This document shows, piece after piece, positions 740-46,447 of a DNA stretch of 57,126 bases. Each line of letters starts with the position of its first letter. Positions within the stretch are counted from its first letter, which is position 1. Origin of the DNA: a virus. Location: IMG/VR virus record IMGVR_UViG_3300033180_000002, positions 1 through 57,126 of that record; one strand, written 5' to 3'. The notes under the pieces were generated by a model. The model saw only the letters and a program-made list of their open reading frames with translations. It was not told where the DNA came from and made no database searches. The position numbers and the translations under genes are program-made.

Positions 740-2176
740 TCATGCCCTGCCCGCCTGCTTCAGGGTCTTGTTCTGCTGGGCGGTGCGCTGCGCGGCAGCC
801 TTGGCCGCCCTCTGCTTGCGGTAGGCGGCGGCGTCCTTCTTCGACATCTTCGCCACTTTGGCCTGTTCGCGGCGGCGGGCAAGGATGGCGTCGGCGCGCT
901 TGCCGAGGGAGTCCTTCTTCCGCTGCTCCGCCTTGGCGTGCCGCTCGGCGCGGCGGTCCAGCACGTCCTGCTGCTTGACGTCCTGAACGCCGGTTGCCTT
1001 GGCTTTGGCGTTGGTCCCGGCGGCCTGCTTCAGGGTTTGCTGGTGTGGGGCGAGGGCCTTCTTGTACCCGGCGATGGCGCGGCGGGCCATGGCGGCAAGC
1101 TTCGGGTTGGTGGCGTTCTGCGCGGCGACGGCCTGGGCTTGGGCGATGGCCTGGGACAGGCCGTTGACGGCGGTCTGCGCCACCTGGACGGGGTTGGCCT
1201 TGGTGGCGTCCTGCTGGCCAGGTTCAGTGTCGCCGCGCTTCTGGCCTTTGCACAGGCCCGGCTTGTGGGTCTGCATGCAGAACTGGCCGTCGGTGCAGGC
1301 GGACTGCATGAGGCTCATCCCGGCGGCGCGCAGAGCCAGGATCCCCCGGTCTTTGTACTGGCGGTTGCCCATCTTGGTGGGCTCGTTTTTGATCTCCAGC
1401 AGCTCGACGCACCGGCAGTTGATCACCTCGTGCGGCGGCCCGTCCGGGTCGTGCGGGTGCATCATCTGGAAGCCGCCGACGACGAAGGGCTGCGCGAACG
1501 GGACGGTCTGGCCGTCGGCTTCGACATGGTCCGGCCGGGTGCGGGAGTCTTCGGTGGCGAGCCAGCGTTTCACCCACTCGGTGCCGGGATCGTTCTCGAC
1601 GATCATGGCGAAGGCGTCATGTAGCCCACCGTTGTAGGCGCCGACGACTTCGGTGCGGGCGACGGTGCGGGCGCGGTTCTTCCAGGTGGGGATGCTGGTG
1701 TCGCCGAACATCTGTTCGACTTGGGCAGTCACGTCGGGGATAGTTGCGCCGTTGACTGTTGCTGAGTCAATGATCTGCGAGACGAGGCCGTACACCTCGG
1801 TCGGGACGGCTGACAGCCGGTTCTCCCGCTGAGCAATCCAGTTCCGCACGAACGGCCGGGACTCGAATACCGTGCCGTCGGCAAACAGGTCCCGGTACGG
1901 GGCGGCCAGCACCTCGCGGGCCACCTGCGCGGTGTACTGCGCGGTCAGTGCCGTCCACTTCGGAGTCTGCGAGAAGACCGTCAGCGGATCGGGCACCAGG
2001 CCGAGCCGGGCTACACCTCCGGCGAACATGGCCGTCTTCACGGCGGCCATCCACTCCAGCATCATCTCCAGGTAAGCCTCATACAGGGACGGCTCGTACT
2101 GGGCGAACACCTCGGCGGCGGCCTGCTTCTGCGCGGTCGCGCTAGGCAGGGTTGTCGGCTGAGTCACGCTCGACAC
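740..2176 (-). CDS. MuF-like (SPP1 gp7 family) minor capsid / head morphogenesis protein
   Basis: Carries Mu F-domain style motifs TVARTEVVGAYNGG, WLATEDSRTRPDHVEADGQ and VINCRCV. It follows the portal gene after three small ORFs. The GTG at 2167, with GAGGAG 8 nt upstream, may be the real start. Confidence 0.8.
   Translation of the reverse strand: MSSVTQPTTLPSATAQKQAAAEVFAQYEPSLYEAYLEMMLEWMAAVKTAMFAGGVARLGLVPDPLTVFSQTPKWTALTAQYTAQVAREVLAAPYRDLFADGTVFESRPFVRNWIAQRENRLSAVPTEVYGLVSQIIDSATVNGATIPDVTAQVEQMFGDTSIPTWKNRARTVARTEVVGAYNGGLHDAFAMIVENDPGTEWVKRWLATEDSRTRPDHVEADGQTVPFAQPFVVGGFQMMHPHDPDGPPHEVINCRCVELLEIKNEPTKMGNRQYKDRGILALRAAGMSLMQSACTDGQFCMQTHKPGLCKGQKRGDTEPGQQDATKANPVQVAQTAVNGLSQAIAQAQAVAAQNATNPKLAAMARRAIAGYKKALAPHQQTLKQAAGTNAKAKATGVQDVKQQDVLDRRAERHAKAEQRKKDSLGKRADAILARRREQAKVAKMSKKDAAAYRKQRAAKAAAQRTAQQNKTLKQAGRA
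1385..1394 (-). repeat. AT-rich motif copy (GATCAAAAAC)
   Basis: Context GAGATCAAAAACGA; within MuF in sense, read E-I-K-N. Confidence 0.8.
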
Positions 2177-2564: not shown

Positions 2565-2837
2565 TCACAGCTTCTTGTCGACTTCCGACTTCGGCACCAG
2601 GTCATGCGCGCCGACCTTCGACTTCGTTTTCCCATGCCCCCGGTCACGCCACTCGACAGTCGCCGACACCTTGCCGCCCTCATGGTGGATCGCCGTGACC
2701 TTGCCGACTGCCGGGCGGGCGGAGGGCGACCCGTCCGGAGCGTGCGCCACCTCGGCGCCTACATGCAGCCACTTCCCGAACGGGTCACGGGCCTGGCCCG
2801 GGTTGAAGCTGAAGGCGGCTTCGCGCAGCGTGGGCAT
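2565..2837 (-). CDS. hypothetical protein (90 aa)
   Basis: ORF track entry. It begins just downstream of the portal stop, and the composition is protein-like. Confidence 0.6.
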   Translation of the reverse strand: MPTLREAAFSFNPGQARDPFGKWLHVGAEVAHAPDGSPSARPAVGKVTAIHHEGGKVSATVEWRDRGHGKTKSKVGAHDLVPKSEVDKKL

Positions 2838-2857
2838 CTACATCTCCTCGTTTCTGA

Positions 2858-4822
2858 TCATGGCGCGAGGTCCCCTCGGGTGACGTGCAGGGTGGACTTC
2901 AGCAGCTCCGGGTCGTGCGCGACGCCCCGGGTCATCAGCTCTGTGCAGTAGCCGCCCAGCAGCTCCTCTAAGGCGTCGGCGTCCACACCCAGTGCGGGGG
3001 CCTGCTCGCGGACGTGCGACCACGCACCGGCCAGCAGGGCGGGCACGCGGGAGCGGTCTGGGATGACCTGGGTATGCAGCTCATGCTTCGGTACCGCATA
3101 CCGGGCACGGGCCGGACCGGCGACGAGGCGGCCACCGGCCAGCTCCAGGGCGCGGCGCACGGCGCTGTCGGCGGCGTAGAACAGGGCGGAGCCGTCCAGG
3201 GTGCCGATGGACGCGGCGAGCTGCCCCAGCTTCTGCTTCTTCGGTGCCCCGACGTTGCCCTGCTCGGCGTCGGCGACGGACGGGAACTGCGGCAGGCCGC
3301 GCTGCCCGGCGTCGGCCGGTTCCGTACCAGCCGAGTCGTATCCGGGGTCGCCGGGCATCAGGTCACCCTGGCCAGGGAGCTGCGGCGGCGTGGGCGGGGC
3401 GGGCATGGAGATGTGCGGCAGCCCGAGGATCTTCTGTACCTCGGGGTCGCCCGCGTAGGCGGGCTGGGCCAGTACGAGGGCCTTGACCAGGCTGTACCGC
3501 AGCTCCTTGTCGTCGGGGGCGTCGTCGTCGGTGAAGGCGGCGTTGTCGCGGGCTGCCTTCGCGCTGATCAGCTCCTTCTCGGCGAACTGGAGTGCCTGGT
3601 CGGAGCGGTTGGGGCGGACGGTGAGGGCGGCGATGTCGAACCAGAGGGTCTTCTTCTCCGGGTTCTGGACGCCTGCGGCTTTGAGGGCGGGCTGGAAGTA
3701 GCCGAGGTTGAGGGCGTCGGCGAGCTGGATGAGTAGCGGCTCGATGTGGATCTTGATCGAGGACTCTTCGATCTGCCACGACGACCAGTGATTGCTGCCG
3801 CCCATGCCGGTCAGCACCTCGGGCGGGATGTCCAGCGACATCGCCATGCGCTCGACGGCGTCCTTACGCATCTGGGAGATGTGCTCCGAGATGGTCGAAT
3901 CGAACGTCAAGTGTTTGATCTTGTCCAGGGCCTCAGTGGCTACCTGGAGGATGATCGGCACCACGGCGGCGGCGTTGTCTCGCTGCTGCATCGACGTGGC
4001 CATGGTCCGCTGCAACAGCTCCGCGAAGCCCTCCACGCCCGTGCGCTGCGGCACCCCCGGCGTCTCCTGTGGCGGGCGCGGAAAGTCGATGTTGTCGGGC
4101 AGCAGCAGGATCCCGGCACCGGCAAGGCGGGAATCCAGCTCGGCGAACACCCGCTTTGTGCACTGCTCCAGCTCGCGCAGCACCGGCAGGATGGCCCGCA
4201 CGGTGGAGTCGGCCGCGTCGTGGCGGCGGGGGTGCGGGTTCCACACCCGGATCAGCAGATCCTTCTGCGGGTCCAGCTTGTAATTGCCCCCGCCGTGGGT
4301 GATGGACCGGCGGACCATGATGTCGTCGCCGCGCCGGAACACCTCCGACGACGAGCAGACATACCACTTGTCCTGGTCCGGGGTGCCGTCCTGACCGGTG
4401 TTCCGATACCCCTCGGCGACGATGAAGACATCCCCGGCGGTCATCATGTTGATGCCCATCAGGCGCTGGGCCTGGGCTTTCGCGGCGGGAGTGCCGAACA
4501 TGGTCTCGGCGATCATCTTCGCCTGGGCGTCGGCGGTCTCGTCGCCCACAGTGCCGTCGTCGGCGATGTCGGCCGCGTACATGCGGCAGCGGGAGATGGC
4601 GTTACCGATCCAGTTGACGACGAAGCGCATCTCCCCGCAGATGTCGTAGTGGCGCCACGCCTCCCACTGCCAGCGGTGGTCGCCCAGCTTGAACATCTGC
4701 CAGCTCGCGGCATCGCCGAGGTTGATGGGTACGGCGGCGGCGGTGAGGGCTGAAGGCCGCGTGCCGGGGCCGTCCAGCCCCCCGGCGGGGACCAGCTTCG
4801 GCTTCTTGGTCAACAGCCCCAC
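2858..4822 (-). CDS. portal protein
   Basis: 654 aa. The N-terminal pattern WQWEAWRHYDICGEMRFVVNWIGNAISRCRMY is typical of actinophage portals. It lies between the terminase region and MuF. Confidence 0.85.
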   Translation of the reverse strand: MGLLTKKPKLVPAGGLDGPGTRPSALTAAAVPINLGDAASWQMFKLGDHRWQWEAWRHYDICGEMRFVVNWIGNAISRCRMYAADIADDGTVGDETADAQAKMIAETMFGTPAAKAQAQRLMGINMMTAGDVFIVAEGYRNTGQDGTPDQDKWYVCSSSEVFRRGDDIMVRRSITHGGGNYKLDPQKDLLIRVWNPHPRRHDAADSTVRAILPVLRELEQCTKRVFAELDSRLAGAGILLLPDNIDFPRPPQETPGVPQRTGVEGFAELLQRTMATSMQQRDNAAAVVPIILQVATEALDKIKHLTFDSTISEHISQMRKDAVERMAMSLDIPPEVLTGMGGSNHWSSWQIEESSIKIHIEPLLIQLADALNLGYFQPALKAAGVQNPEKKTLWFDIAALTVRPNRSDQALQFAEKELISAKAARDNAAFTDDDAPDDKELRYSLVKALVLAQPAYAGDPEVQKILGLPHISMPAPPTPPQLPGQGDLMPGDPGYDSAGTEPADAGQRGLPQFPSVADAEQGNVGAPKKQKLGQLAASIGTLDGSALFYAADSAVRRALELAGGRLVAGPARARYAVPKHELHTQVIPDRSRVPALLAGAWSHVREQAPALGVDADALEELLGGYCTELMTRGVAHDPELLKSTLHVTRGDLAP

Positions 4823-4826
4823 TCAG

Positions 4827-5135
4827 TCACCCCTTCACGCGAGCCAGCGCACCGGCAGCGCCAGACAGGGCCAGCCCGAGGGCGGGCACGAACAGCCACG
4901 GCGAATCGCCGTAAGCGTAGATGATGGGGGCGGCGGGGACGGCCAGCCAGATGGACACGCACCAGGGACACAAGAGCAGGTAGGCGAGCATGTCGTGACC
5001 GCGTTCCTTGAGCGCGGTCACGGTGGCGTCGCGGGGGCGGGCCGTGATCATGTCCATCGTGATGAGCACGGTGAGGCGGGCGAACGCGAACAGGTAGACC
5101 GCGTATAAAACAGAGAAGCCGGGCATGGCCACCAT
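4827..5135 (-). CDS. DUF1360-like integral membrane protein
   Basis: 102 aa with three hydrophobic segments. It carries the LLLCPWCVSIW motif characteristic of DUF1360. Confidence 0.55.
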   Translation of the reverse strand: MVAMPGFSVLYAVYLFAFARLTVLITMDMITARPRDATVTALKERGHDMLAYLLLCPWCVSIWLAVPAAPIIYAYGDSPWLFVPALGLALSGAAGALARVKG

Positions 5136-5173
5136 CGTAGGTGGTCAGCCCGGCTTCGCCGGTAAGCGGTGGG

Positions 5174-5734
5174 TCAGCCCAGCAACTCTTCGATTGCTGC
5201 CGCGTACGTCTCCTGGTCGAAGATGACCAGGCGGACGACCTCCACGTCCGTGCTCGCGGAGCGCAGCGCCGTCAGGGCCTGCTTGACCGCGTCACCCTTG
5301 GGCCAGCCGTAGACACCGGCCGAGATGAGCGGGAAGGCGACCGTGCGCGCACCTACGACGTCGGCGGCGGACAGCGACCTGACGTAGCAGCTACGTAGCA
5401 CAGCCGAGCGGTCCTCGCGCGGGTTGAACATGGGGCCGACGGTGTGGACCACCCATCGTGCGGGGAGGGCGCCTGCGGTGGTGATCACGGCGTACCCGGC
5501 GGGGAGGCCGTTGGGCAGGTCGCGGCGCAGCTCCTTGCATTCCCGCAGGATGGCCGGGCCGCCCGCGTGGTGGATCGCCCCGTCCACTCCGCCGCCGCCG
5601 AGCAGGCTGGACTTAGCGGCGTTGACGATGACGTCGACCTTCTCGGTGGTGATGTCGCCCTGCACCAGCTCTATCCGCAGGGCCGGGCGGCGCCAGTTGC
5701 GCAGGCGTCGGGCAATCTTGCCGAATCCGAACAT
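5174..5734 (-). CDS. macrodomain protein (MacroD/YmdB-like ADP-ribose binding or hydrolase)
   Basis: Contains LVQGDITTEKVDVIVNAAKSSLLGGGGVDGAIHHAGGPAILRECK, the classic macro-domain signature. The ATG at 5734 overlaps the upstream stop (TGATG), whereas the ORF track start is 5752. Confidence 0.8.
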   Translation of the reverse strand: MFGFGKIARRLRNWRRPALRIELVQGDITTEKVDVIVNAAKSSLLGGGGVDGAIHHAGGPAILRECKELRRDLPNGLPAGYAVITTAGALPARWVVHTVGPMFNPREDRSAVLRSCYVRSLSAADVVGARTVAFPLISAGVYGWPKGDAVKQALTALRSASTDVEVVRLVIFDQETYAAAIEELLG

Positions 5735-5982
5735 CAGAACTTCACGGTCCATTCGCTGTCGGGGATGCTGGTGTCGGCGGCCATGATCTGAGCCAGCATG
5801 AGGGCAATTTCGCCGACCGGACGGCCGCTCATTATGGGGCCGAATGTGCGGGCCATTCCGACGGCGTCTCTACGGCTGAAGCCGTGCCAGCCGATCCGGC
5901 CGGTCGGGTCCTCAACGATGACGGAGTAAGTGGGCCGCCCGTACCAGGTGCGGCCTCGGCGGATGACGGTGATGGTCGGCAT
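5734..5982 (-). CDS. hypothetical protein (82 aa)
   Basis: The real part of the 403-aa ORF 5734..6945 is MPTITVIRRGRTWYGRPTYSVIVEDPTGRIGWHGF.... GAGGGAGG lies 6 nt upstream of the ATG at 5982. Confidence 0.6.
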   Translation of the reverse strand: MPTITVIRRGRTWYGRPTYSVIVEDPTGRIGWHGFSRRDAVGMARTFGPIMSGRPVGEIALMLAQIMAADTSIPDSEWTVKF

Positions 5983-5993
5983 CAGGGCCTCCC

Positions 5994-6140
5994 TCACTTG
6001 CTGAAGTTGTCGAGGCGGCGGGTGACGGCTGCCTTCGCGGTCTTGCTCTGCTCGGAGGCGTTCAGCCTGTTCAGATCCTGATACTTGCGGGTGAGGCGGC
6101 GGACTTTCAGGGCTTGCGCGGCGGCGGTGATGGGGTTCAT
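5994..6140 (-). CDS. hypothetical small protein (48 aa)
   Basis: Hand translation gives MNPITAAAQALKVRRLTRKYQDLNRLNASEQSKTAKAAVTRRLDNFSK*. GAGGAGG lies upstream of the ATG at 6140. Confidence 0.5.
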   Translation of the reverse strand: MNPITAAAQALKVRRLTRKYQDLNRLNASEQSKTAKAAVTRRLDNFSK

Positions 6141-6157
6141 GGCGTCCTCCTCGGTTG

Positions 6158-6199
6158 CTGTCTACGCACAGCCTACAGCCCCCCTGCCCATCAGGGCAA
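6158..6199 (-). promoter_or_regulatory. putative promoter (TTGCCC-N18-TAGGCT) with the conserved GTGCGTAGACAG leader box
   Basis: The minus strand reads TTGCCCtgatgggcaggggggctgTAGGCTGTGCGTAGACAGc. The 3' part matches the 22-mer shared by the plus-strand promoters at 19011 and 47467. Confidence 0.4.
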
Positions 6200-6248
6200 G
6201 AGGGCTGTAGCTTCCGGCGAACCGCCGGATCTGAGGGGATCACCCCGT

Positions 6249-6980
6249 CTAGTTGGCCACGGCCACATTGTCGGCGGCAGTGACCGTGGCCTCGTCGATG
6301 GGATCGGCGTTGGCGAGCTCGTACCCGGTGCGGCCGTTGTCCCAACGCCAGCCCGCCACGCGCTGCGCCGACATCTCGTCGAACGCCTCCACGGTCGTGC
6401 GCATGTCGGCCGCCACGGGGCGCGTGATCACGAACCTCTTGAGCGGCGGGATGGGGGCGAGCCCGTACGAGGCGAGCACCCGGTTGGCGCCCTGCTCGCA
6501 GTACTTGGGTCCGGCGATGTGCCCGAGCAGGATGATCTCGCGGAGCATGTCCAGGGTGGCCTGCATGGTGGCCGGGGCGTCCAGGTCGATCACGTTCGGG
6601 TCGGGGTCTTCCGGTCCGGCCGTGAACTTCGGGTCGTTCAAGGTGGCCTGCACGGACACCATCGTCTGCACGCCAGTGCTCACGCGGTCCTCGAACAGGG
6701 TCAGGGCCTCGGCGCGGGTTGCGGCCTGGATCCCGACCGACACCGTGCCGGAGACGGTGGCCTCCACGACGTACGTGCTGGTGAAGCCGATCAGGTTGGT
6801 GATGCCCAGCACGGTGAGTTTCTTGTTCGCCCACTCGGCGGTGATCTCCCCCGCGTTGCGCCAGTCCCGGGCCGTTGCGGCGATGTACTCGCGCAGGGCC
6901 AGCAGCTTGGTCGCCTCGTCCCGGTCCGCGTTGTTGGCCTCCCACTCGGTCCAGACAAGGGCCGGGTCTGCGTACTGCAT
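6249..6980 (-). CDS. hypothetical protein (243 aa)
   Basis: The ATG at 6980 (MQYADPALVWTEW...) is preceded by GGAGGAG. The upstream part of ORF 6249..7106 runs into a tRNA-like gene. Confidence 0.6.
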   Translation of the reverse strand: MQYADPALVWTEWEANNADRDEATKLLALREYIAATARDWRNAGEITAEWANKKLTVLGITNLIGFTSTYVVEATVSGTVSVGIQAATRAEALTLFEDRVSTGVQTMVSVQATLNDPKFTAGPEDPDPNVIDLDAPATMQATLDMLREIILLGHIAGPKYCEQGANRVLASYGLAPIPPLKRFVITRPVAADMRTTVEAFDEMSAQRVAGWRWDNGRTGYELANADPIDEATVTAADNVAVAN

Positions 6981-7058
6981 GTGATCTCCTCCAACGTGGT
7001 ATCTGTCGGCCCTCAGCTTACACGGTGCGCCGGGGGGCCGTCCAGCCGGAACGGACGG

Positions 7059-7146
7059 TGGCGAGGGCAGGATTTGAACCTGCGTCCCAGACCCCGATAG
7101 CCGCACTATCCGGGGTCCGTGCTCTAGGCCGCTGAGCTATCTCGCC
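7059..7146 (-). ncRNA. tRNA-like RNA (88 nt) with a 12-bp anticodon stem; apical loop GUGCGGC (would read anticodon GCG)
   Basis: Hand fold: GGCGAGA TA GCTC AGCGGCCTA GAGC A CGGACCCCGGATA GTGCGGC TATCGGGGTCTG GGAC GCAGG TTCAAAT CCTGC CCTCGCC A. The acceptor, D and T arms are canonical. The anticodon stem is about 7 bp too long and has one bulged G. Confidence 0.65.
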
Positions 7147-7279
7147 TGGAACCCTGCCGTGGAGGTACGCATTCGGACACCACCACAACGCCCGTGAGCC
7201 ACGATGGACCGCGTTCTGCGCCCAGCGCACGACAGGGTCAACAACATCCCCGGGGCGTAAGCCAGGGCGCCGGGGATCG

Positions 7280-7323
7280 TGGACCGGCGGGGAGTCGAAC
7301 CCCGTGATACCCAACTCCGGCCC
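7280..7323 (-). ncRNA. acceptor/T-arm minihelix (tRNA 3'-fragment-like) with a G3:U70 wobble
   Basis: Hand fold: GGGCCGG AGTTGGGTATCA CGGGG TTCGACT CCCCG CCGGTCC A. No D or anticodon arm could be found. It shares the 3' end CCGGTCCA with the element at 9138..9203. Confidence 0.3.
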
Positions 7324-7332
7324 GACCTTCAT

Positions 7333-7342
7333 GATCGAAAAC
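7333..7342 (+). repeat. AT-rich motif copy (GATCGAAAAC)
   Basis: Context CATGATCGAAAACGC; non-coding, 10 nt from the minihelix at 7280..7323. Confidence 0.8.
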
Positions 7343-7351
7343 GCCACGCTG

Positions 7352-7696
7352 TTATGTGCTGGCCTGCGGCCCCTGGACCTCGTCGACCAGCGGGGTGCCC
7401 GTGTCGGCGTGCTCCCGGTAGTTGTCGAGCAGATCGTCGAGGGCATACCAGACGCCCGTACGGCTGCCGTCGGACTCGCGGAACGAATCACGCCACCGCT
7501 TGATCCAGACGTCGATATCGCTGCCGCGCATTGGCCTGTGGGGCTCCACCAACGGCTGCGGCAGGGCGGGCGGGCGCCACCCCATGGTGAGAAGCGCCCG
7601 AATCGCAGCAAGAGCCTGAGAGTCGTCGAGTCCGGGGCGGATGGCCCGGACCTTCGTCGCGGCGATGCGTAGGGCTAAGTCGTCCATACCCCGCAC
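7352..7696 (-). CDS. hypothetical protein (114 aa) embedded in the tRNA-like array
   Basis: ORF track entry. The sequence looks protein-like (...VWYALDDLLDNYREHADTGTPLVDE...). An alternative ATG lies at 7687. Confidence 0.55.
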   Translation of the reverse strand: MRGMDDLALRIAATKVRAIRPGLDDSQALAAIRALLTMGWRPPALPQPLVEPHRPMRGSDIDVWIKRWRDSFRESDGSRTGVWYALDDLLDNYREHADTGTPLVDEVQGPQAST

Positions 7697-7700
7697 CCTT

Positions 7701-7841
7701 TCACTTGCTCTTCTTCGGGTTCTTCGCCTTGACCATCTTCTTGTCGCCGTACTTCGGTTTCTGCGCCTGCATGGGCGGGGTGGTCGCCCTGCTCGCCTTC
7801 TCCCCGGTGATGACGTTGCGGACGCTCTTGAAGAATCCCAC
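7701..7841 (-). CDS. hypothetical basic small protein (46 aa)
   Basis: Hand translation gives VGFFKSVRNVITGEKASRATTPPMQAQKPKYGDKKMVKAKNPKKSK*. AAGGGGG lies 7 nt upstream of the GTG. Confidence 0.4.
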   Translation of the reverse strand: MGFFKSVRNVITGEKASRATTPPMQAQKPKYGDKKMVKAKNPKKSK

Positions 7842-7843
7842 CG

Positions 7844-7966
7844 CTATGCCCCCTTCGGACCCCGTACGCGGTTGAGCCGGGCGGCGATGCTGTTGACCTG
7901 CTTGGTGCTGGCGTTGTTGCGAATGGCCTTGCCGAGTGCGGCCCAGATCTTGTCGACGTCGTTCAT
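7844..7966 (-). CDS. hypothetical small protein (40 aa)
   Basis: Hand translation gives MNDVDKIWAALGKAIRNNASTKQVNSIAARLNRVRGPKGA*. It has a strong GAGGAGGAG ribosome-binding site. Confidence 0.5.
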   Translation of the reverse strand: MNDVDKIWAALGKAIRNNASTKQVNSIAARLNRVRGPKGA

Positions 7967-8002
7967 GCCGTTCTCCTCCTCGTTTGGGGGGTTACGTGGT
8001 AG

Positions 8003-8064
8003 GTCGCCGGGACGCGAATCCACGCCGTGGCCACGGGGGATTCCCTCGGTGCATCCCGGCGACC
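8003..8064. other. hairpin closed by a perfect 11-bp stem
   Basis: GGTCGCCGGGA (8003-8013) pairs with TCCCGGCGACC (8054-8064). It lies between the 194-nt tRNA-like RNA and the next small gene. On the minus strand it is followed by TACCA. Confidence 0.55.
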
Positions 8065-8154
8065 CGCCGCCCAGCGTCCGGTAAGAGCCTTCGTCTGGGC
8101 GACAGCGGAGGGCTGAGGTCGGGGCGGGCCCGCTTTGCTCTCCTCCGCATCCGT

Positions 8155-8348
8155 GGTGACGGGTGGGCTCGAACCACCGGGGTCCTTCCGGCCTGGTCCC
8201 TGTCGGCCCGGATGATCTTCCGAGTTTTCAGGGGGGCCTTGGGGCCGCTCCTCCCCCTTCGCACCGGCTGAATCAGGCCGGGGGTCGCCGTTAGCCGTGC
8301 GCACGGCGCGGTCCGGCCGGGGGTGCTCTTCCTCTGAGCTACGTCACC
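8155..8348 (-). ncRNA. 194-nt tRNA-like RNA: canonical acceptor, D and T arms with about 144 nt in place of the anticodon/variable region
   Basis: The 5' part is GGTGACG TA GCTC AGAGGAA GAGC A, and the 3' part is GGTGG TTCGAGC CCACC CGTCACC A, giving a 7/7-bp acceptor. The insert holds several hairpins, a duplicated ACCCCCGGCC and a GGGGGAGGAG tract. Confidence 0.6.
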
Positions 8349-8466
8349 TTGTTCAGTTGTCGTGCCCACCTCGCCCGCCGGGCCGTCGCCATGACGGGCG
8401 AGGTGGTGCCATTTCTCGCTTGGGTCAGACACCGTCGTGAGTGAACAGCTAGGCATGGCTGCCTCC

Positions 8467-8536
8467 GTGCCGTGCGGGGAGTTGAACCCCGTCTTCCCCG
8501 GGTTAGGGGGCGCTCCACCTCCAGAGCTTCACGGCG
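8467..8536 (-). tRNA. tRNA-like gene (70 nt), C1:A72 mismatch, 4-bp anticodon stem, loop CUAACCC
   Basis: Hand fold: CGCCGTG AA GCTC TGGAGGTG GAGC G CCCC CTAACCC GGGG AAGA CGGGG TTCAACT CCCCG CACGGCA C. It is a paralogue of 8790..8861, and both are preceded by GTAC. Confidence 0.6.
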
Positions 8537-8789
8537 GTACTGAGCCAGCCCGGGTCTCCAGGGCATGTCCCCGGCTCACCGATTCTCCCGTGTCCGGGCG
8601 GTGGGTCCTTGCTGGCCTTTCCTGTTACCAGGCGCAACCTGTGCGCCACTACCCCCTGCGGGGCCTCCCGCTCTGCGGGCGTCACGGCCGTGTCAGGCCG
8701 TCCTCGGCGGCTTCCTGCGCGTCACAGCTGCTCACCCGGGAGGGTGGACTGTGTACGACCTGCGTGCAAGCCACGAAGCACTTTCGGTC

Positions 8790-8861
8790 GTGCCACGGGA
8801 GGACTCGAACCTCCGACTCAGGGCTTTGGGCCCCAGCTCTGGCCATCTGAGCTACGCGGCG
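8790..8861 (-). tRNA. tRNA-like gene (72 nt) with an initiator-like body (C1:A72, three G:C pairs in the anticodon stem) but loop CCCAAAG
   Basis: Hand fold: CGCCGCG TA GCTC AGATGGCCA GAGC TGGGG CCCAAAG CCCTG AGTC GGAGG TTCGAGT CCTCC CGTGGCA C. Position 33 is C rather than U, and there is no N26. Confidence 0.65.
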
Positions 8862-8954
8862 GTACTAGGCTTTCTTCCGCTTCGCGTGTCGACCCACTAG
8901 GCGGCGCCTGGCCTTTCCTTTTACCACCCCAGGTTGGCTATCTCCCGGGGGCCG

Positions 8955-9026
8955 TGACGTTGGACGGATTCGCACCGCCGACCTCCTGCCGTGAGGCAGG
9001 TGCTCTATCTGCTGAGCTACAACGTC
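8955..9026 (-). tRNA. tRNA-like gene (72 nt), Val(CAC)-like, with a 6-nt anticodon loop
   Basis: Hand fold: GACGTTG TA GCTC AGCAGATA GAGC A CCTGC CUCACG GCAGG AGGTC GGCGG TGCGAAT CCGTC CAACGTC A. The loop is one nt short, and the T-loop is TGC instead of TTC. Confidence 0.7.
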
Positions 9027-9137
9027 GGCCGCTTACTCAAGGCGACCACTCGGGTTGACGCCAGGGTGAGTGTCGGCAGTTTCCCGCATTGGGCCAATGG
9101 CCTTCCAGGTAGTGCCGTCCTCCAGCGTTCCTTCGCG

Positions 9138-9203
9138 TGGACCGGTGGCATCGAAGCCAGCAGGCGTGCGGGCCGCACATCTTCAAAACACCCTGCCCGG
9201 TCC
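9138..9203 (-). ncRNA. 66-nt tRNA-like element (7-bp acceptor, T-like arm with a 6-nt loop, no clear D or anticodon arm)
   Basis: Sequence: GGACCGGGCAGGGTGTTTTGAAGATGTGCGGCCCGCACGCCTGCTGGCTTCGATGCCACCGGTCCA. The ends GGACCGG/CCGGTCC pair perfectly. Confidence 0.3.
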
Positions 9204-9344
9204 CGGCCGCCCGCATATGTTCGGGTCATCTGTCGGCCGTCGTGCTGGTCGTGGCCTCATCCCCCGAGGCGTGGGGGCATCGTCCAGCACTTGCACCTGT
9301 GGTCGTCTTGGGGTGTCGCACCCGGTGCCCCGGTGCGTCTTCCG

Positions 9345-9412
9345 TGGGAAGAGCAGGAGTCGAACCTGCGTCTCTGTGCCGAAGCGTGGCTCTACCGTTG
9401 AGCTATCTCCCC
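9345..9412 (-). ncRNA. tRNA-like RNA (68 nt) with a truncated anticodon arm
   Basis: Hand fold: GGGGAGA TA GCTC AACGGTA GAGC [CACGCTTCGGCACAGAGAC] GCAGG TTCGACT CCTGC TCTTCCC A. Only 19 nt sit where about 22 are expected, and no 5-bp/7-nt anticodon hairpin can form. Confidence 0.55.
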
Positions 9413-9455: not shown

Positions 9456-9638
9456 TTACTTCTTGGGCTTGTCGCCGCCCTTGAAGACCACGACGATCTT
9501 GCCGAGCAGGGACTTGTCGGAGGTGCGGCCGTCACCAGCCGAGGCGCCGTGGCCACGGGGGTGACCTGTGCCGCGACCGAACCAGCGGTTGCTGGACTTG
9601 CCGGATTCGTTGCCGAGGTGCCGGGTCTTGTTGGTCAT
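9456..9638 (-). CDS. hypothetical basic protein (60 aa)
   Basis: ORF track entry. GGAGGAG lies upstream of the ATG. Confidence 0.55.
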   Translation of the reverse strand: MTNKTRHLGNESGKSSNRWFGRGTGHPRGHGASAGDGRTSDKSLLGKIVVVFKGGDKPKK

Positions 9639-9673
9639 CGGGTCTCCTCCGTTGCGGGCGGGCGGGGGGCCGG

Positions 9674-9877
9674 TCAGTAGGTGGGGTGCTGCTCCGTCTC
9701 GACCGTGAAGTCGACGCTGGTGCGCTTGACGGCGGTGGTGGCGACCTTCACCGGGTCGAGGTGGATGCTGCCGTCGTCGTCCTTCTCGGCGGTGTAGAAC
9801 TCGATGCCCTTGTCCACGATGCCGTCCAGGTTGACGCGGCCACGGGCATCGACGCGGTACAGGGTCAATTCGGGCAT
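9674..9877 (-). CDS. SpoVT/AbrB-like (swapped-hairpin) small DNA-binding protein, putative
   Basis: VDARGRVNLDGIVDKGIEFYTAEKDDDGSIHLDPVKV resembles the AbrB-fold pattern. GGAGGAA lies upstream of the ATG. Confidence 0.4.
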   Translation of the reverse strand: MPELTLYRVDARGRVNLDGIVDKGIEFYTAEKDDDGSIHLDPVKVATTAVKRTSVDFTVETEQHPTY

Positions 9878-10006
9878 GAGGGTGTTCCTCCAGGATGTGT
9901 GCCGGGGTGGAGGGGACCGGGTGGCCCTACCTCCCGAGCGGGACGGGGGGCCGACCGCTCGGGTTGACAGACCGGGGAGGCGTGAGCCAGTCCCGATCCC
10001 CTCCGT

Positions 10007-10372
10007 CTACTGAGACCCTACACCATCCCGCACGGGGGACTCTGCCACGCGTACGGAAGGGGTTTTCGGGTCACGGCGAGCCAGGATCTCGGCCCGGAAG
10101 TGGCTGAACAGGTTCTCCCAGTCGCAGTCGGCTGGGTGACCGTCGAAGTCGACGCCGGGCGTGCGGGCGGCCAGCATGCCGAACAGCCAGGCCCGATCCC
10201 CATCGGAGACGCTGTCGTTCTCGCCCATGAACGATCCCGCCATGTGGCAGAACTGCCAGCGCCTATCGGGCTCAATGTCCATGCCGCTATCGATCTGGTC
10301 GAGGCGCCGCGTGATGAGCTGCACGACGTGGCGGTTGAGCGTGTCGGCGATTCCTGCGTCCATGTGGAACAT
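10007..10372 (-). CDS. hypothetical protein (about 118-121 aa)
   Basis: ORF track entry. GGGAGG abuts the first ATG, so the ATG at 10363 is the more likely start. Confidence 0.6.
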   Translation of the reverse strand: MFHMDAGIADTLNRHVVQLITRRLDQIDSGMDIEPDRRWQFCHMAGSFMGENDSVSDGDRAWLFGMLAARTPGVDFDGHPADCDWENLFSHFRAEILARRDPKTPSVRVAESPVRDGVGSQ

Positions 10373-11235: not shown

Positions 11236-12714
11236 CTATCCGTACGCCGAGCTGGAGGGCATCCAGTCGTTGACGGACGGGGCGGCGATGCGGACCAGCC
11301 CCTTCTCTTTGCCCATCAGGAACAGTCCGGCCTGCACGAGGGCGTCGATGCGGTCGGGGCTCTTCGCATCCTCGGGGACCCACGTACAGCATTGGTCCTC
11401 CAGCTCGACGAAGGTGCCGACGTGGTGCCAGCGGTTCTGCTCGTAGCGGGAGGCGACCGGTTCGGCGCGCAGCTTCTTCCCGGCTAGGGAGGTGACTTCC
11501 TTGACCGGCGGCGGACCAGGGGGGAACAGGCAGCCTTGGCACCCCTCGTCCGGGTCGTCCTTGTCCGGGCCGGGGCAGCCCGGCTCGTGCTCCTTCTGCA
11601 TCTCCGCGTAGGCGTCGGTGACGACCTGCATGAGCCACTTCTTGCCCATGTTCGTTTCGATGATCAGCCAGGTGGCGTCGTAGCGCAGGAACATCTCCCA
11701 GGCGCGGCGGGCGGCGGCGTGCCCGACAATCTTCATCGTCCAGTCGGCTAGGACGTAGTCGTCGCCGTTGTAGCCGCGCCCGGCTGCGATCAGGCCGGTC
11801 TCGTCGCCCGCGCCAGTGGCGCCGGGGTCCATGGAGATGACGCGCATCTTCAGTTCGGGCAGGTCGGCAGCCTTGATGCGGTTGTTTTCGATCATGGTGC
11901 GGTTCCACAGTGCACCCTCGATCTCTTCGAGGAGGTGCCCGTACAACTCCTGCAACCCGGCGCGGGTGCCCTCGTAGATCTTCTTGAGCTGGTCGACGAC
12001 CTTCCGCGACAGGTTCATGATGTTGTCGAAGATCGAGCCGGTGGTGATGACGACCGTGCCGTCCGTCTCGTGCTGCCACTCGATCAGCAGCTTGATCGGC
12101 TTCGGGGTGGTGGTGACCACGGCGCGGGGGTGGTCGTCGATGAGCGGGGCGCGCAGCGACGGCAGGATGCCCTCGTACCAGGCGCTGTACGTGTAGCGCC
12201 ACTTGGCCAGCTCGTCGGCCCACAGCCCGGCCAGGTTGAAGCCTCGGCCGACGTCGGCGTTGTCGGCGCCCTCGAAGTAGATGACCTGACCGGACGTGAA
12301 TTCGATCATGAGCTTGGGCGACTTCCAGTACCGGAAGTCCTTGCCCTTCACGAGGCCCATGCGGTGCAGGATCGACAGGATGCCGGAGTTGCCCTCAAGG
12401 CAGGCGGTGCGGCAGTCGTTCAGCGTCTCGGCGATCACCAGCCACTCGGTGCGCTGGCCGAAGGCATCCACGGGATGGCGGAACACCCGGTCGAGGAGGT
12501 CTTCGGCGCCGGTGCGCGTTTTGCCCCAGCCGCGACCGGAGCGGATCAGCCAGACCAGCCAGTCCCCGGGCGGCTTGAACTGCTCGGGCCGCCCGACCCA
12601 CCACCAAGCGCCCTTCTGGATCTCCTCCAGCGTCTCGCGGTTCTGGGCCTGGAGCCATTGACGGCGCAGCGCGGGCGGCAGCAGGGCCAGCTTCTGGGCG
12701 GCGGACAGACTCAT
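11236..12714 (-). CDS. terminase large subunit
   Basis: 492 aa. It has the Walker A-like motif IRSGRGWGKTRTGAED, a C-terminal nuclease-like region, and the expected size and position. Confidence 0.85.
   Translation of the reverse strand: MSLSAAQKLALLPPALRRQWLQAQNRETLEEIQKGAWWWVGRPEQFKPPGDWLVWLIRSGRGWGKTRTGAEDLLDRVFRHPVDAFGQRTEWLVIAETLNDCRTACLEGNSGILSILHRMGLVKGKDFRYWKSPKLMIEFTSGQVIYFEGADNADVGRGFNLAGLWADELAKWRYTYSAWYEGILPSLRAPLIDDHPRAVVTTTPKPIKLLIEWQHETDGTVVITTGSIFDNIMNLSRKVVDQLKKIYEGTRAGLQELYGHLLEEIEGALWNRTMIENNRIKAADLPELKMRVISMDPGATGAGDETGLIAAGRGYNGDDYVLADWTMKIVGHAAARRAWEMFLRYDATWLIIETNMGKKWLMQVVTDAYAEMQKEHEPGCPGPDKDDPDEGCQGCLFPPGPPPVKEVTSLAGKKLRAEPVASRYEQNRWHHVGTFVELEDQCCTWVPEDAKSPDRIDALVQAGLFLMGKEKGLVRIAAPSVNDWMPSSSAYG
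11884..11893 (-). repeat. AT-rich motif copy (GATCGAAAAC)
   Basis: Context CATGATCGAAAACAA; within the large terminase in sense, read M-I-E-N. Confidence 0.8.
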
Positions 12715-15598: not shown

Positions 15599-16482
15599 GA
15601 CGGGTTGCTCTCTTTCATCTGCTTGATGATCTTCTCCAGCTCACGGCGTACGGCCATGAGGCGGGTGTGTACCGGCCCGACCTGCTCCCAGGTCAGCTCG
15701 GCGTTGGGCGGGCCCAACTCGACGAGCCCGGCCACCAGCCCCTCCATCTGAGGCAGGGACCTGTGCCATGCGGTCCGCTGACGGGCGGCGGGGGCTGCTT
15801 CGGCAGTCTCGACCGGCCGTGGCCGCGTCACGGTGGTGCGGACACCCCTCAGCCGCTGATAGTTGGCCCAGACGTTGCCGCTCTCGTCGATGCCGCGCAT
15901 GACCTCACGGGCCAGCTCGCGCTTATCGTCCGGCACATCCGTGGCGCCGTAGCCGGTGTGGTAGACGACTTCGATGCGCCGGGCGGTGGCGGCGGAGATG
16001 TCGAACGGCTCGCAGATGACGCCAAGCACGTAGTCGTCGGTGCGGCTGCTCGACCGGCCCGGCTTGCGCTTGCCGGTCTGCGTCTGCTTGCGCAGCTCCA
16101 CACCCCGGCGCCGGGACGCATCAGCGCGCTTGGCGGCGGCGGGGGCGTCCAGGCGGCGCAGAACCTCCCACAGGCGGCAAACCTCGCTCCACTTCAGTGG
16201 CACGGAGAGGTGGTCGTCCTCGCCGTCGGCGAGCAACTGCTTCGCGGCATCTTCGATGTTGTCCACGAAGACGGCCTGGATCCGGGGCCTCTCCAGCAGC
16301 AGGTGCGCGAACAGCCGTCGGCTGCCGGAGATGAGGGTTCCGTCTCGCCAGAGGGTGATCGGGCGGCGCAGTCCGTCGTCGCGGATGCTGGCGAGCAGGG
16401 CGGCGCAACTGCCGTAGCTCTCGCGCGTGCGCGGAATGCGTATCGCCTCGGTCCGCACCGTGCGCTCGGACGGCTCCGTCAT
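15595..16482 (-). CDS. second ParB-like domain protein (295 aa)
   Basis: The real part of ORF 15595..16887 starts at ATG 16482 (MTEPSERTV...). It contains LASIRDDGLRRPITLWRDGTLISGSRRLFAHL, a ParB N-domain pattern. It has an ATGA overlap with the upstream gene. Confidence 0.6.
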   Translation of the reverse strand: MTEPSERTVRTEAIRIPRTRESYGSCAALLASIRDDGLRRPITLWRDGTLISGSRRLFAHLLLERPRIQAVFVDNIEDAAKQLLADGEDDHLSVPLKWSEVCRLWEVLRRLDAPAAAKRADASRRRGVELRKQTQTGKRKPGRSSSRTDDYVLGVICEPFDISAATARRIEVVYHTGYGATDVPDDKRELAREVMRGIDESGNVWANYQRLRGVRTTVTRPRPVETAEAAPAARQRTAWHRSLPQMEGLVAGLVELGPPNAELTWEQVGPVHTRLMAVRRELEKIIKQMKESNPS

Positions 16483-16868
16483 CGGATCGCGGCCATCTCG
16501 CGGGTATCCGGCTCCAGCACGCCGATGCGCTGCTCGAATTCTGTCAACGGCTGATGCCAGCTGGGTGCGATGAAGGCGGGCTGGGCGGCAACGAGGGCGG
16601 CGTAATCCCGGGTGAGCCGTTCGGCGGTGGCGGCTGCCCAGTCGTACCGGTACGGCTCGGCGACGAGGCCGAGACGGTGACGGCCGGGCGCCTTGGCGGG
16701 AGCCACAGCCCAGAGACTCGGGGCGTCGGTGTGCAGGAAGCGGTCGACGGCGTACAGGAAGACGGCCAGGGCGACCATGAAGGCCAGGGCCAGGGGCAGT
16801 GGAAGTACAACCGGGTCGAGCATCTTCGGTTCCTCCTCGGTGGTCTTGAACGGCTCCATCATGCACAC
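16479..16868 (-). CDS. membrane protein (first gene of the minus-strand series)
   Basis: Contains a hydrophobic helix (PVVLPLPLALAFMVALAVFLYAV). The start may instead be the internal MLDPVV. Confidence 0.5.
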   Translation of the reverse strand: MCMMEPFKTTEEEPKMLDPVVLPLPLALAFMVALAVFLYAVDRFLHTDAPSLWAVAPAKAPGRHRLGLVAEPYRYDWAAATAERLTRDYAALVAAQPAFIAPSWHQPLTEFEQRIGVLEPDTREMAAIR

Positions 16869-16877
16869 GCCCGGCGC

Positions 16878-16960
16878 CCGCTGTCAACCAAGACTCTACA
16901 GAGCACGTCAGGCCGGGTGTTGACCATGGCTGGCGGGAGATCGGTACTGTATGCTGCTAA
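16878..16960. promoter_or_regulatory. divergent promoter region between the minus-strand and plus-strand blocks
   Basis: The inverted -35-like hexamers GTCAAC (reading TTGACA on the minus strand) and TTGACC are about 30 nt apart. A TATGCT box at 16950 resembles the -10 of the conserved promoters. Confidence 0.4.
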
Positions 16961-16995
16961 CTGACGGACACCCGGCACAGAGGTGAGGAACAGAT

Positions 16996-17337
16996 ATGCC
17001 CAGTTATAAAACGATGTGGCAGGAGGCGAGCCAGGAGATCGACCGGCTGACAGCCGAGATCAGGAGGTTGAAGAACGCCATCCTGACCGGACCCGACGAC
17101 ACCCTGCGCGAGCTGGAGCGGACCCGGCAGATCGTGGACCTGGCCGGTATCGCCCGGCACATGCGCGTCGAGCGGTTCACCCCGCAGCAGTGGAAGCAGC
17201 GCGACCACCTGCCCCCGGTGGACTTCCCCGAGATCAAGGAACCGCTCTGGTACGCCTCCACGATCCGGGAGCAGTTCGCCAAGCGGACGCAGCGGGTCTG
17301 GTACGACCACCCCGAGGAGCTGTCACCCGCAGCCTGA
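16996..17337 (+). CDS. HTH DNA-binding protein (excisionase/MerR-like), first early gene
   Basis: An N-terminal coiled coil is followed by VDLAGIARHMRVERFTPQQWKQR...PLWYASTI, which resembles an Xis/AlpA-type HTH. The ribosome-binding site is GAGGTGAGGA. Confidence 0.45.
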   Translation: MPSYKTMWQEASQEIDRLTAEIRRLKNAILTGPDDTLRELERTRQIVDLAGIARHMRVERFTPQQWKQRDHLPPVDFPEIKEPLWYASTIREQFAKRTQRVWYDHPEELSPAA

Positions 17338-17485
17338 CGGGGTGTAGAAATAGAGCAACGCCCCGGGCTGGCTGGCCCGAGGCGTTGAAATGCTCTCAAC
17401 TCGTACTCGTCGTCACCCCGGAGTCTACCGACGCCATACAGGCGCGGCAACTCCCGAGGGTGCCCTATCTGAAAAGGGTCACCTT

Positions 17486-18271
17486 TTGACAATCACCATC
17501 AGGCGCGGTCCGCTGCCGACCGACCACTTCACGATCATCTCTAACGCCTGGGTGCGGGACGACTCGCTGTCCTGGGCGGCGCGCGGCTTGCTGGCTTGGA
17601 TGCAGAGCCACGCCGACGGCTACCCGATCACCGAAGAGGGGATCATCGCGGCGGGGCCCGGAGAACGCGCGGCCGTACGGACCATGACCCGCGCCCTTGA
17701 AGAGGCCGGGTATCTGCGCCGCGAACGGACCCCCATCGTCACTGGCGGATCGAGCGTCAGCTACGTACTGACTGACCCCCGAGAGGGCGAAAACAGCCCC
17801 CTCGGGAACGGCGGAAAAACGCCCCCTCGGTCTGACCAGGGAGAACAGGACGTTTCCGCAGGTAAACCGAACGGCGGAAAAACGCCCCCTCGTTCCTCTC
17901 TAGAAGACCAGAAGAAAACTAAGACTCCTTCGGAGTCTTCACGCGCGACGAGAGTCCCCCCGAACTTCATGCCCGACGAGCAGATGCGGACCTGGTTCGC
18001 CGGTGAGCAGTTGGCGGCAGTGATCGACGGGAAGCGCGAGCACGAGAAGTTCATGGACTACTGGTTGGGCTGCCCCGGCGTGAAGGCCCGCAAGGTGGAC
18101 TGGCCTGCCACGTGGCGCAACTGGATGCGCACGGCGGCCGAGAGGGCTCCCCGGCGGCCCGGCAACGGCCTGGTCCCGACGTCCGGTGCGCCGTACCGGC
18201 CGAGCACGACTGATCAGCGAGTCGGGCAAGCGCTCGACATCGCCCGCAAGTACGAGGAGCAGGGACTGTGA
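17486..18271 (+). CDS. putative replication initiator / replisome organiser (winged-helix N-domain)
   Basis: Contains FTIISNAWVRDDSLSWAARGLLAWMQSH...ALEEAGYLRRE. The region upstream of the TTG at 17486 has poor codon bias, so I prefer that start over the ORF-track start at 17390. The gene contains direct DNA repeats. Confidence 0.45.
   Translation: MTITIRRGPLPTDHFTIISNAWVRDDSLSWAARGLLAWMQSHADGYPITEEGIIAAGPGERAAVRTMTRALEEAGYLRRERTPIVTGGSSVSYVLTDPREGENSPLGNGGKTPPRSDQGEQDVSAGKPNGGKTPPRSSLEDQKKTKTPSESSRATRVPPNFMPDEQMRTWFAGEQLAAVIDGKREHEKFMDYWLGCPGVKARKVDWPATWRNWMRTAAERAPRRPGNGLVPTSGAPYRPSTTDQRVGQALDIARKYEEQGL
17787..17895 (+). repeat. three direct repeats GCG(G)AAAAC(A/G)(G)CCCCCTCG (iteron-like) inside the initiator-like gene
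   Basis: The copies are at 17787-17806, 17807-17832 and 17870-17895. The last two share 24 of 26 nt (aacggcggaaaaacgccccctcg) and are 63 bp apart. Confidence 0.7.
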
Positions 18272-21020: not shown

Positions 21021-21112
21021 GGGCCTGTAGCTCAACGGCAGAGCGCGTCATCCCACCGGGCATCACCCGGGTTCGGCAAGACGAGGCGCGGGTTCGACTC
21101 CCGCCAGGACCA
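21021..21112 (+). ncRNA. tRNA-like RNA (92 nt) with an expanded, irregular anticodon arm
   Basis: Hand fold: GGGCCTG TA GCTC AACGGCA GAGC G [42 nt: CGTC A TCCCA CCGGG CATCA CCCGG GTTCGGCAA GACG AGGC] GCGGG TTCGACT CCCGC CAGGACC A. It has a G3:A70 mismatch. Confidence 0.55.
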
Positions 21113-45897: not shown

Positions 45898-46447
45898 GCA
45901 GGCGTTGAGCTGGGTCGGCCAGTTCCGGACCACCGACGACCTGGCCGTCCTCGACATCGGCGGGCGCGACCTCAACGGCAACACGCGCGGCCTCTTCCCG
46001 AACGCCAACCCGTACCACGTGATCGACATCCGCCCCGGCAAGGGCGTCGACATCGTGGCAGACGCCGCCGACTGGCGGTCGGAACGCGCCTACGATCTGG
46101 TGGTCACCACCGAGACCTTCGAGCACGCCGAGAAGTGGCGGGAGATCATCCTGACCGCCTGGGAGTCACTACGGCCGGGCGGCTGGCTGATCTTCACCTG
46201 CGCCGGACCGGGGCGCCCGCCCCACTCCGGCGTCGAAGCGGTGTGGGGTCTGATCGGCGACGAGTGGTACGCCAACGTGTCGCCACAGGAGATCGCCGAC
46301 GAGCTGACAGACCAGGGCTGGACGGAGATCGAGGCGCACCAGCTCGGCCTGGACACGCGGGGCAAGGCCGTCAAGCCGCTGGCCCCGCGTGAGGTACTTC
46401 TCGGGGCCACGCTGTCCCGGACAGCGGCAGGCGACCCGAACGCCTGA
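45890..46447 (+). CDS. class I SAM-dependent methyltransferase
   Basis: Contains VLDIGGRDLNGN (motif I-like), VVTTETFEHAEKW and LRPGGWLIFTCAG. Confidence 0.6.
   Translation: MHEQALSWVGQFRTTDDLAVLDIGGRDLNGNTRGLFPNANPYHVIDIRPGKGVDIVADAADWRSERAYDLVVTTETFEHAEKWREIILTAWESLRPGGWLIFTCAGPGRPPHSGVEAVWGLIGDEWYANVSPQEIADELTDQGWTEIEAHQLGLDTRGKAVKPLAPREVLLGATLSRTAAGDPNA

Follow-up and report, generated by a model that had tools for sequence, protein, structure and literature searches.

Enzymes acting on ADP-ribose (ADPr) linkages have been described in several contexts that resemble the phage locus considered here. MacroD enzymes, such as Escherichia coli YmdB, Oceanobacillus iheyensis MacroD and human MacroD1/2, cleave ADPr bound through ester-type linkages, and enzymes of the ARH/DraG kind release it from arginine. 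In DarT/DarG an ADP-ribosyltransferase (ART) is coupled to a macrodomain that undoes its product; DarG is TARG1/ALC1-like, has its catalytic lysine elsewhere, carries a toxin-binding C-terminal domain and is encoded by a gene adjoining DarT. T4 Alt and the polyvalent proteins (Iyer et al. 2017, PMC5512222) are large multidomain proteins that are encoded beside portal and MuF, combine an ART fold with other enzymatic domains and are predicted to be injected; in these descriptions there is no cognate phage-encoded eraser and the word Macro is absent. Stand-alone macro genes among virion genes and Nudix domains fused to head-associated proteins have also been reported by Iyer et al. 2022 (PMC9503650), who had recognized that ADPr-processing domains generally occur together in DNA viruses, found macros in just about 1% of siphoviruses, took the main role of phage macros to be the degradation of host ADPr signals of low molecular weight and remarked that, outside toxin-antitoxin systems, deconjugation from macromolecules lacks direct evidence. 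Our subject is a stand-alone macro gene at positions 5174-5734 of IMG/VR virus record IMGVR_UViG_3300033180_000002, whose 57,126 nucleotides (57.1 kb, 67.8% GC, an actinophage-like genome; hereafter the window) also encode a giant protein with Nudix and ART-like domains. Across related phages the macro gene tracks this type of giant protein, and its product may be the eraser for the phage's own effector.

The macro gene is complete and conserved, and forms part of one block with terminase, portal and MuF, all on one strand:

5174-5734, minus strand: macro gene, 186 aa, MacroD/YmdB type, supported by Pfam and NCBIfam profiles and by codon-position GC.

That this is a real gene is borne out by all of these signals. 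Pfam Macro (PF01661) matches residues 37-152 of the product with E=6.4e-36 and 123.3 bits against a cut-off of 22, spanning profile positions 1-117 of 118, and the NCBIfam equivalog NF001664 (O-acetyl-ADP-ribose deacetylase) reaches 230.5 bits against a cut-off of 200. GC at the three codon positions is 0.70/0.50/0.89, as for coding sequence in this window; in the same frame 5' of the ATG the third-position value (GC3) is just 0.51, and the ATG at 5734 is therefore the true start. A sequence search of the PDB places MacroD-type structures closer than the TARG1, PARG or DarG types, the nearest solved relatives being Oceanobacillus MacroD 5l9k (E=2.6e-40), E. coli YmdB 5cb3/1spv and human MacroD1/2. 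The phage protein thus shares fold and family with the MacroD type, being 45-57% identical to its bacterial members over the domain, but differs from it in an added N-terminal helix, in its location in a phage structural operon and in one residue of the active site. The macro signature had been called unambiguous in a sequence-only reading of this DNA, and as far as the profiles and loops are concerned it is: the Gly-rich phosphate loops, the Asp and His of G-G-G-V-D-G-x-I-H and the G-[VI]-[YF]-G loop are all present, and GGGGVDGAIH and SAGVYGWP are complete and invariant across the clade of this protein. It does not extend to the N-A-A-N motif, which reads NAAK, the conserved asparagine that contacts the distal ribose being replaced by lysine at K41 (nt 5612-5614), the equivalent of N30 in O. 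iheyensis MacroD (OiMacroD). The N30A change lowers kcat/Km of OiMacroD by 72%, leaving ~28% (PMC5413906); this effect being mild, K41 would, by analogy, more likely tune substrate binding than abolish activity. The product of 5174-5734 is accordingly best described, from its sequence, as an active-looking, predicted MacroD/YmdB-type ADP-ribosyl hydrolase. When used in a tblastn search of cultured phages it retrieved 10 distant matches, 0 of them from actinophages.

These features also define how far the parallel with DarT/DarG, drawn in the sequence-only reading, can be taken. The functional logic of an ART and a macrodomain that undoes its product holds, whereas the protein itself is a single-domain, 186-aa MacroD-type enzyme, not one of the DarG/TARG1 type, and is encoded kilobases from the ART-like domain; Pfam and NCBIfam scans found no DarT in the window.

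The opposite end of the window encodes the candidate partner:

52275-57077, minus strand: 1600-aa multidomain ('polyvalent') protein, whose gene follows MuF in relatives, across the contig junction.
53175-53498, minus strand: NUDIX domain (PF00293) of this protein, aa 1194-1301, Pfam E=3.7e-12, 46.8 bits against a cut-off of 21.1.
52278-52940, minus strand: divergent ART-superfamily domain of this protein, about aa 1380-1600, recognized from sub-threshold profiles and fold matches.

In relatives the giant gene comes after MuF on the same strand, and in the closest one it spans the contig ends; therefore, the window is a circularly permuted genome, and undoing the permutation places the giant gene 5-10 kb downstream of macro. 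Over its first ~1150 aa the protein contains repeats and matches no family; within 53630-57077 (minus strand) repeats of the form LSKxEFDxL...EQxxIxDxL occur at aa 329, 520 and 813, together with looser copies. The Nudix box GASDSKETPHQGATRETIEELGL is complete (aa 1217-1239, nt 53361-53429) with respect to the consensus used, G-x5-E-x7-R-E-U-x-E-E-x-G-U. The ART-like region carries the motifs AWRG (aa 1441), GNGYY (aa 1483; GNGYYLAT), LNRSV (aa 1588) and LQKE (aa 1595). Two Pfam profiles find it below their gathering scores, PARP PF00644 with E=0.006 and 16.6 bits (gathering score 26.7) and ART-PolyVal PF18760 with E=0.02 and 16.1 bits (31.2). Its AlphaFold (AF2) model has a pLDDT of 80.6; compared with the PDB, PARP1/2 catalytic domains make up almost the whole list of 50 matches, although the matches are weak (E 5e-3, prob 0.94, TM 0.28), and in BFVD the matches include ART-PolyVal-like proteins, a 'PolyVal ADP-ribosyltransferase' (E 6.5e-4, prob 0.98) and large phage proteins, these last with E down to 2e-10. 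Profile search against the PDB returned ART toxin and tankyrase matches, all of them sub-threshold, phmmer against the PDB solely a spurious pyruvate carboxylase match, and tblastn of the Nudix-ART region against cultured phages two weak Nudix matches and no others.

The family of this domain (ARTc) is large, with 1419 clusters found by profile search among 1.84 billion representatives, many of them inside giant proteins, and it falls essentially outside Pfam: one of 61 distant members matches PARP and one ART-PolyVal. Family-wide motifs are h-h-[FWY]-R-G-V, G-x-G-h-Y-G-N-G-x-Y-h-[ST] and L-N-R-[ST]-A-h-h-V-[EQ]-E. Residues of the window protein are plausible candidates for an NAD-binding/catalytic triad (R or H; Y or S-T-S; E or [QE]-x-E). 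The modelled C-terminus of the giant protein is therefore likely to adopt an ART-superfamily fold, and we regard it as a putative transferase. With 1600 aa, Nudix and ART-like domains and a position after MuF in all relatives, the protein corresponds to a polyvalent effector; in our case packaging is proposed from the genes. The writer, eraser and Nudix set anticipated for this phage is thus complete, with the amendment that Nudix and ART are two domains of one protein and that the writer is a divergent, putative one.

The association between macro and effector was evaluated in relatives collected through the portal gene (54 IMG/VR loci with 69-89% portal identity, 10-kb flanks) and in a second sample of 25 more loci anchored on the Nudix-ART region; macro was scored by HMM and tblastn. 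The giant proteins form two clusters by their C-termini, type A with the Nudix and ART-like domains of the window and type B with an exoenzyme ART (PF03496 ADPrib_exo_Tox, E 1e-13 to 1e-20). The co-occurrence check, set beforehand as the test of a partnership, gave a clear outcome: macro is present in 13/13 type-A contigs with the upstream region covered and in 0/13 type-B contigs, with no discordant contigs (Fisher p ~1e-7, relatedness ignored). Type B has an eraser of its own, as an ADP_ribosyl_GH gene (PF03747, E 1e-56 to 1e-60) follows the giant gene at a distance of 1-1.5 kb in all 8 covered type-B contigs and in 0 of the 23 covered type-A contigs. The type-B relatives therefore pair, outside this window, an R-S-E exotoxin-type ART with an ADP-ribosylglycohydrolase, as in DraT/DraG and the ARH erasers. 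The chemistry of R-S-E ARTs and ARH is linked to reversal of arginine-ADPr, and this second pair is a natural control for the macro pairing. Scans of the window for ARH and NADAR found neither. A 680-aa protein of the window (49639-51681, minus strand) matches with its C-terminal ~305 aa a ~306-aa gene of the type-B relative L036 at 75% identity; its N-terminal ~375 aa have no L036 match and sit at the position of the type-B ARH, with no ARH signal.

Descent of the two types from two clonal lineages would produce the same association, and it was ruled out by comparing backbone genes, four of which are listed here as they occur in the window:

11236-12714, minus strand: large terminase (TerL), at the head of the same-strand late block, second backbone marker.
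4827-5135, minus strand: 102-aa DUF1360-like membrane protein between macro and portal, kept in all relatives of both types.
2858-4822, minus strand: portal, 654 aa, the neutral anchor for collecting relatives.
740-2176, minus strand: MuF-like head morphogenesis protein, 478 aa, with a low-complexity/coiled C-terminal third.

Mean identities within A, within B and between types were 0.796, 0.794 and 0.795 for portal, 0.832, 0.826 and 0.832 for TerL, 0.774, 0.765 and 0.762 for MuF, 0.768, 0.768 and 0.769 for DUF1360, and 0.723, 0.691 and 0.708 for a 245-aa protein, and the A and B states are interleaved on the portal tree. The backbone carries no type signal, and shared ancestry therefore does not explain the link between macro and effector. 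Among nine type-A contigs the divergence matrices of macro and Nudix-ART are correlated (rho 0.67, Mantel p 0.0035), and those of macro and the intervening portal are not (rho 0.11). Judged from these comparisons, the backbone recombines freely, whereas each eraser keeps to its effector type, macro to Nudix+ART-like and ARH to the exotoxin type.

The same data bear on the simplest alternative, namely that macro is a host-derived passenger, an accessory gene whose link to the effector is an effect of recombination breakpoints packaging accessory neighbours. Actinophage genomes are mosaic, the macro protein is close to ordinary actinobacterial YmdB-like proteins (about 65-70% identity), and the adjoining 243-aa gene is type-associated too, with identities of 0.49 and 0.40 within types and 0.30 between them. 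We nevertheless consider a mere passenger quite improbable: the freely assorting DUF1360, portal and MuF genes separate macro from the effector C-terminus, which is 4-8 kb away, discordant contigs are zero and the divergences of macro and Nudix-ART are correlated, K41 and a clade-specific N-terminal helix indicate adaptation after capture, and the mirrored pairing of ARH with the exotoxin argues against chance.

A second explanation is that macro serves anti-defence, reversing host ADP-ribosylation of the DarT/CmdT type or destroying ADPr-derived signals or toxins, so that with the injected Nudix domain it would form a toolkit directed at NAD-based immunity and not at the phage's own ART; ADPr-1''-phosphate, O-acetyl-ADPr (OAADPr) and cyclic ADPr variants are candidate substrates. 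Such a role would fit a gene captured from the host, and it is the default published for the Macro, NADAR and Nudix genes that phages carry close to morphogenesis genes (PMC9503650). One type-B relative, L053, has a NADAR gene (8916-9368, plus strand; PF08719, E=2e-24) in the slot that macro occupies in type A, being the sole relative with NADAR. Moreover, orphan antitoxin-like erasers of T4-like phages and chimalliviruses, likewise phage-borne and drawn from cellular systems, are reported from experiments to overcome DarTG (PMC11825919, PMC13309987). Those erasers reportedly counter a host ART, DarT, whereas in the present group co-variation points to the phage's own effector. Anti-defence alone predicts neither the confinement of macro to the Nudix+ARTc type nor that of ARH to the exotoxin type on a mixing backbone. 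To our knowledge, no MacroD-type enzyme reverses DarT thymidine adducts. Taken together, we hold this explanation to be rather unlikely; a possible variant of it is that a single host signal is processed by Nudix, ARTc and macro together.

It could also be conceived that the three activities form a metabolic or RNA-repair chain, in which a KptA/Tpt1-like or otherwise NAD-consuming ART fold would yield ADPr-phosphate, macro would dephosphorylate ADPr-1''-phosphate and Nudix would produce AMP and ribose-5-phosphate. The KptA active site is an Arg-His-Arg-Arg tetrad. The ART domain of the window does not have its conserved His, although several invariant arginines of the domain could bind phosphates, and its fold matches are PARP catalytic domains and PolyVal ARTs instead of KptA. 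Members of the ARTc family are fused to a 2H phosphoesterase in 2/61 cases and to Nudix in 2/61, and the phage has a tRNA cluster, but scans of the window found neither an RNA ligase nor a 2H gene. Macro domains are classical Appr-1''-p phosphatases (PMC9503650), which agrees with the proposed chain; the parallel exotoxin/ARH pair would be left unexplained by it. Overall, this scheme appears about as improbable as the passenger.

The sequence-only reading had listed partnership with the phage's own ART among several roles and held that sequence could not decide between them. Comparative analysis does favour that option, since macro tracks the effector type perfectly on a backbone with no type signal and a second eraser, ARH, accompanies the second group. 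Because effector and eraser are swapped as matched sets, because the backbone has no type structure and because the MacroD and ARH/DraG chemistries differ as set out above, we lean, by somewhat more than an even balance, towards macro being a dedicated eraser for the phage's own Nudix+ART-like effector. Several observations weigh against this. Several contigs are near-duplicates, so that the independent observations are fewer than 26. The ART domain matches PARP and ART-PolyVal of Pfam below threshold only, a lysine takes the place of the conserved substrate-binding asparagine, and the membrane tether of macro is without explanation. The 243-aa gene and the whole giant gene co-vary with type, and the selected unit could exceed macro and ART. 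In the retrieved +-10 kb around 77 other ARTc-family IMG/VR loci, 6 of them with a Nudix box encoded by the open reading frame (ORF) of the domain, there were 0 macro and 0 ARH genes, and an eraser is therefore no general requirement of the ARTc domain; likewise, the distant Nudix-ARTc phages L076 and L078 have no macro within +-10 kb. Approached from the opposite side, about 60 other macro-bearing IMG/VR loci contained an ARTc-family domain nearby in a single case:

L132, 115-10334, plus strand: TerL, Mu-type portal, MuF, an 803-aa protein (XkdF protease, ADPrib_exo_Tox and ARTc), a Zeta-toxin-like kinase, Macro (7754-8272) and ADP_ribosyl_GH (9483-10334).

This locus belongs to an unrelated phage of 58% GC and, as an independent case, speaks for the pairing, with both writer domains in one head-associated protein and both erasers encoded behind it.

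If macro is indeed the eraser for the phage's own effector, the giant protein would be packaged in the head and then injected, as thought for T4 Alt and other polyvalent proteins, and its ART domain would form a macro-labile linkage, e.g. an ester on Asp/Glu or on phosphate. The macrodomain, made late together with the effector, would clear adducts before packaging, whether they sit on the automodified effector or on components of phage or cell, the released ADP-ribose could be broken down by Nudix, and the N-terminal membrane or amphipathic helix would limit where the eraser acts; the ARH of type B might play the matching role for the exotoxin-type ART. Going one step further, it is tempting to speculate that two interchangeable, chemically matched cassettes, Nudix+ART-like with membrane-tethered Lys-MacroD and exotoxin ART with ARH, swap as units on a freely recombining soil-actinophage backbone, a broader proposal that we put forward only tentatively and regard as doubtful. 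If true, phages would retain, for an ADP-ribosylating weapon that they inject, a cognate eraser conferring 'self-immunity', like the immunity genes of polymorphic toxins, the identity of the eraser would predict the linkage made by the ART, and the membrane tether might put the eraser at the site of assembly or effector entry, e.g. blunting the effectors of superinfecting relatives. For phage macrodomains in general, host small-molecule signals are the favoured substrate (PMC9503650). This phage group provides a natural experiment in which the same backbone carries either pair with no mixed cases; the idea of an eraser for the own writer is directly testable with four genes, and the pairing supplies a rule by which the chemistry of an ART family with about 1400 representative clusters might be guessed. 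Our literature search found no description of a type-matched writer-eraser alternation on a shared backbone, PMC9503650 containing no macro/ARH swap.

The clade to which the macro protein belongs offers a view of its origin. In a tree, the 27 closest homologues with Lys replacing the NAAN Asn form one clean clade, whose basal member, sister to the phage macros, is a chromosomal Rhodococcus protein encoded as follows:

L158, 4249-6510, Rhodococcus chromosome: divergent NrtR-like regulator, ADP_ribosyl_GH (ARG) and Lys-type Macro.

The start of this Macro overlaps the ARG stop, indicating translational coupling. Operons of the NrtR-ARG-Macro type are predicted to strip macromolecular ADPr adducts (Iyer et al. 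2022, PMC9503650), the L158 operon being of the kind predicted to counter viral ADP-ribosylation; this kinship, too, speaks for the eraser reading. The genomic contexts of two Asn-type cellular homologues are unrelated. On the evidence of tree and gene context, the phage macros derive from the cellular macro of an NrtR-ARG-Macro operon. All 26 other clade members are extended N-terminally, 18/26 with a predicted transmembrane (TM) helix and basic residues and 8/26 with a short amphipathic basic helix; the window protein goes with the latter, its N-terminus being short, basic and amphipathic (MFGFGKIARRLRNWRR; helix region at 5672-5734, minus strand), and the cellular homologues have neither kind of helix. 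Through this Lys-variant, membrane-anchored MacroD clade a phage gene is linked to a host system predicted to act against ADP-ribosylation; no description of such a clade or of its NrtR-ARG-Macro origin was found in the literature search. Several of its members are found on ~56-58-kb contigs.

On the minus strand the genes around macro run from TerL (12714-11236) through small ORFs, 4 tRNAs (9412-7059), the 243-aa gene (6983-6249), a 48-aa ORF and an 82-aa ORF to macro, and continue with the DUF1360-like protein, portal (4822-2858), a 90-aa ORF and MuF (2176-740). Macro had been placed beside the portal, which is nearly right, as the single 102-aa DUF1360-like gene (4827-5135) intervenes. Two of its upstream neighbours deserve separate mention:

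5734-5982, minus strand: 82-aa gene whose TGA overlaps the macro ATG (TGATG), GC3 0.83, strong GGGAGG ribosome-binding site.
6249-6983, minus strand: 243-aa protein, whose gene directly precedes the 48-aa ORF, the 82-aa gene and macro.

The 82-aa ORF is taken as a gene because of its GC3, its strong GGGAGG site and its homologues in relatives, even though Pfam and NCBIfam scans gave it no match. These homologues occur only in L032, L036 and L041, all of which have no macro or one that is not scorable, and the ORF was therefore discarded as a macro partner: the TGATG overlap noticed earlier is present and joins two real genes, but is ordinary operon packing and not a macro-specific partnership. 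The 243-aa protein is confined to this phage group, with 62 homologues; its AF2 model has a pLDDT of 91.5 and resembles an internal duplication, and since a fold search of the PDB with this model gave no match the modelled fold is apparently new.

MuF itself was considered as a carrier of the ART, which was ruled out because no domain matches its low-complexity C-terminus. In the MuF polymorphic toxins, said to have been described by Jamet et al. in 2017, the MuF domain is reportedly N-terminal and the toxin C-terminal in one protein, and the next gene downstream is a small one for immunity. Here the MuF C-terminus is without a toxin domain, the effector is encoded by a separate gene and macro lies upstream of portal.

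Megablast of 2800-9000 against 50,697 phage records matched nothing, and by this comparison the phage appears to be without a close cultured relative; the best capsid identity is ~40%, to Microbacterium and Actinoplanes phages. A portal search across 185,579 GTDB species genomes retrieved 0 relatives, which suggests that the phage is probably no common prophage. The tRNAs between terminase and the macro block lie at 7059-7146, 8790-8861, 8955-9026 and 9345-9412 (minus strand), and a further one at 21021-21112 (plus strand); all five score above the Rfam threshold, with ARAGORN giving odd anticodon loops in two and missing the one at 9345. The window also contains a methyltransferase gene at 45890-46447 (plus strand), and in the closest relative, L001, a methyltransferase and an NAD-dependent epimerase are encoded between MuF and the giant gene (16400-17817).

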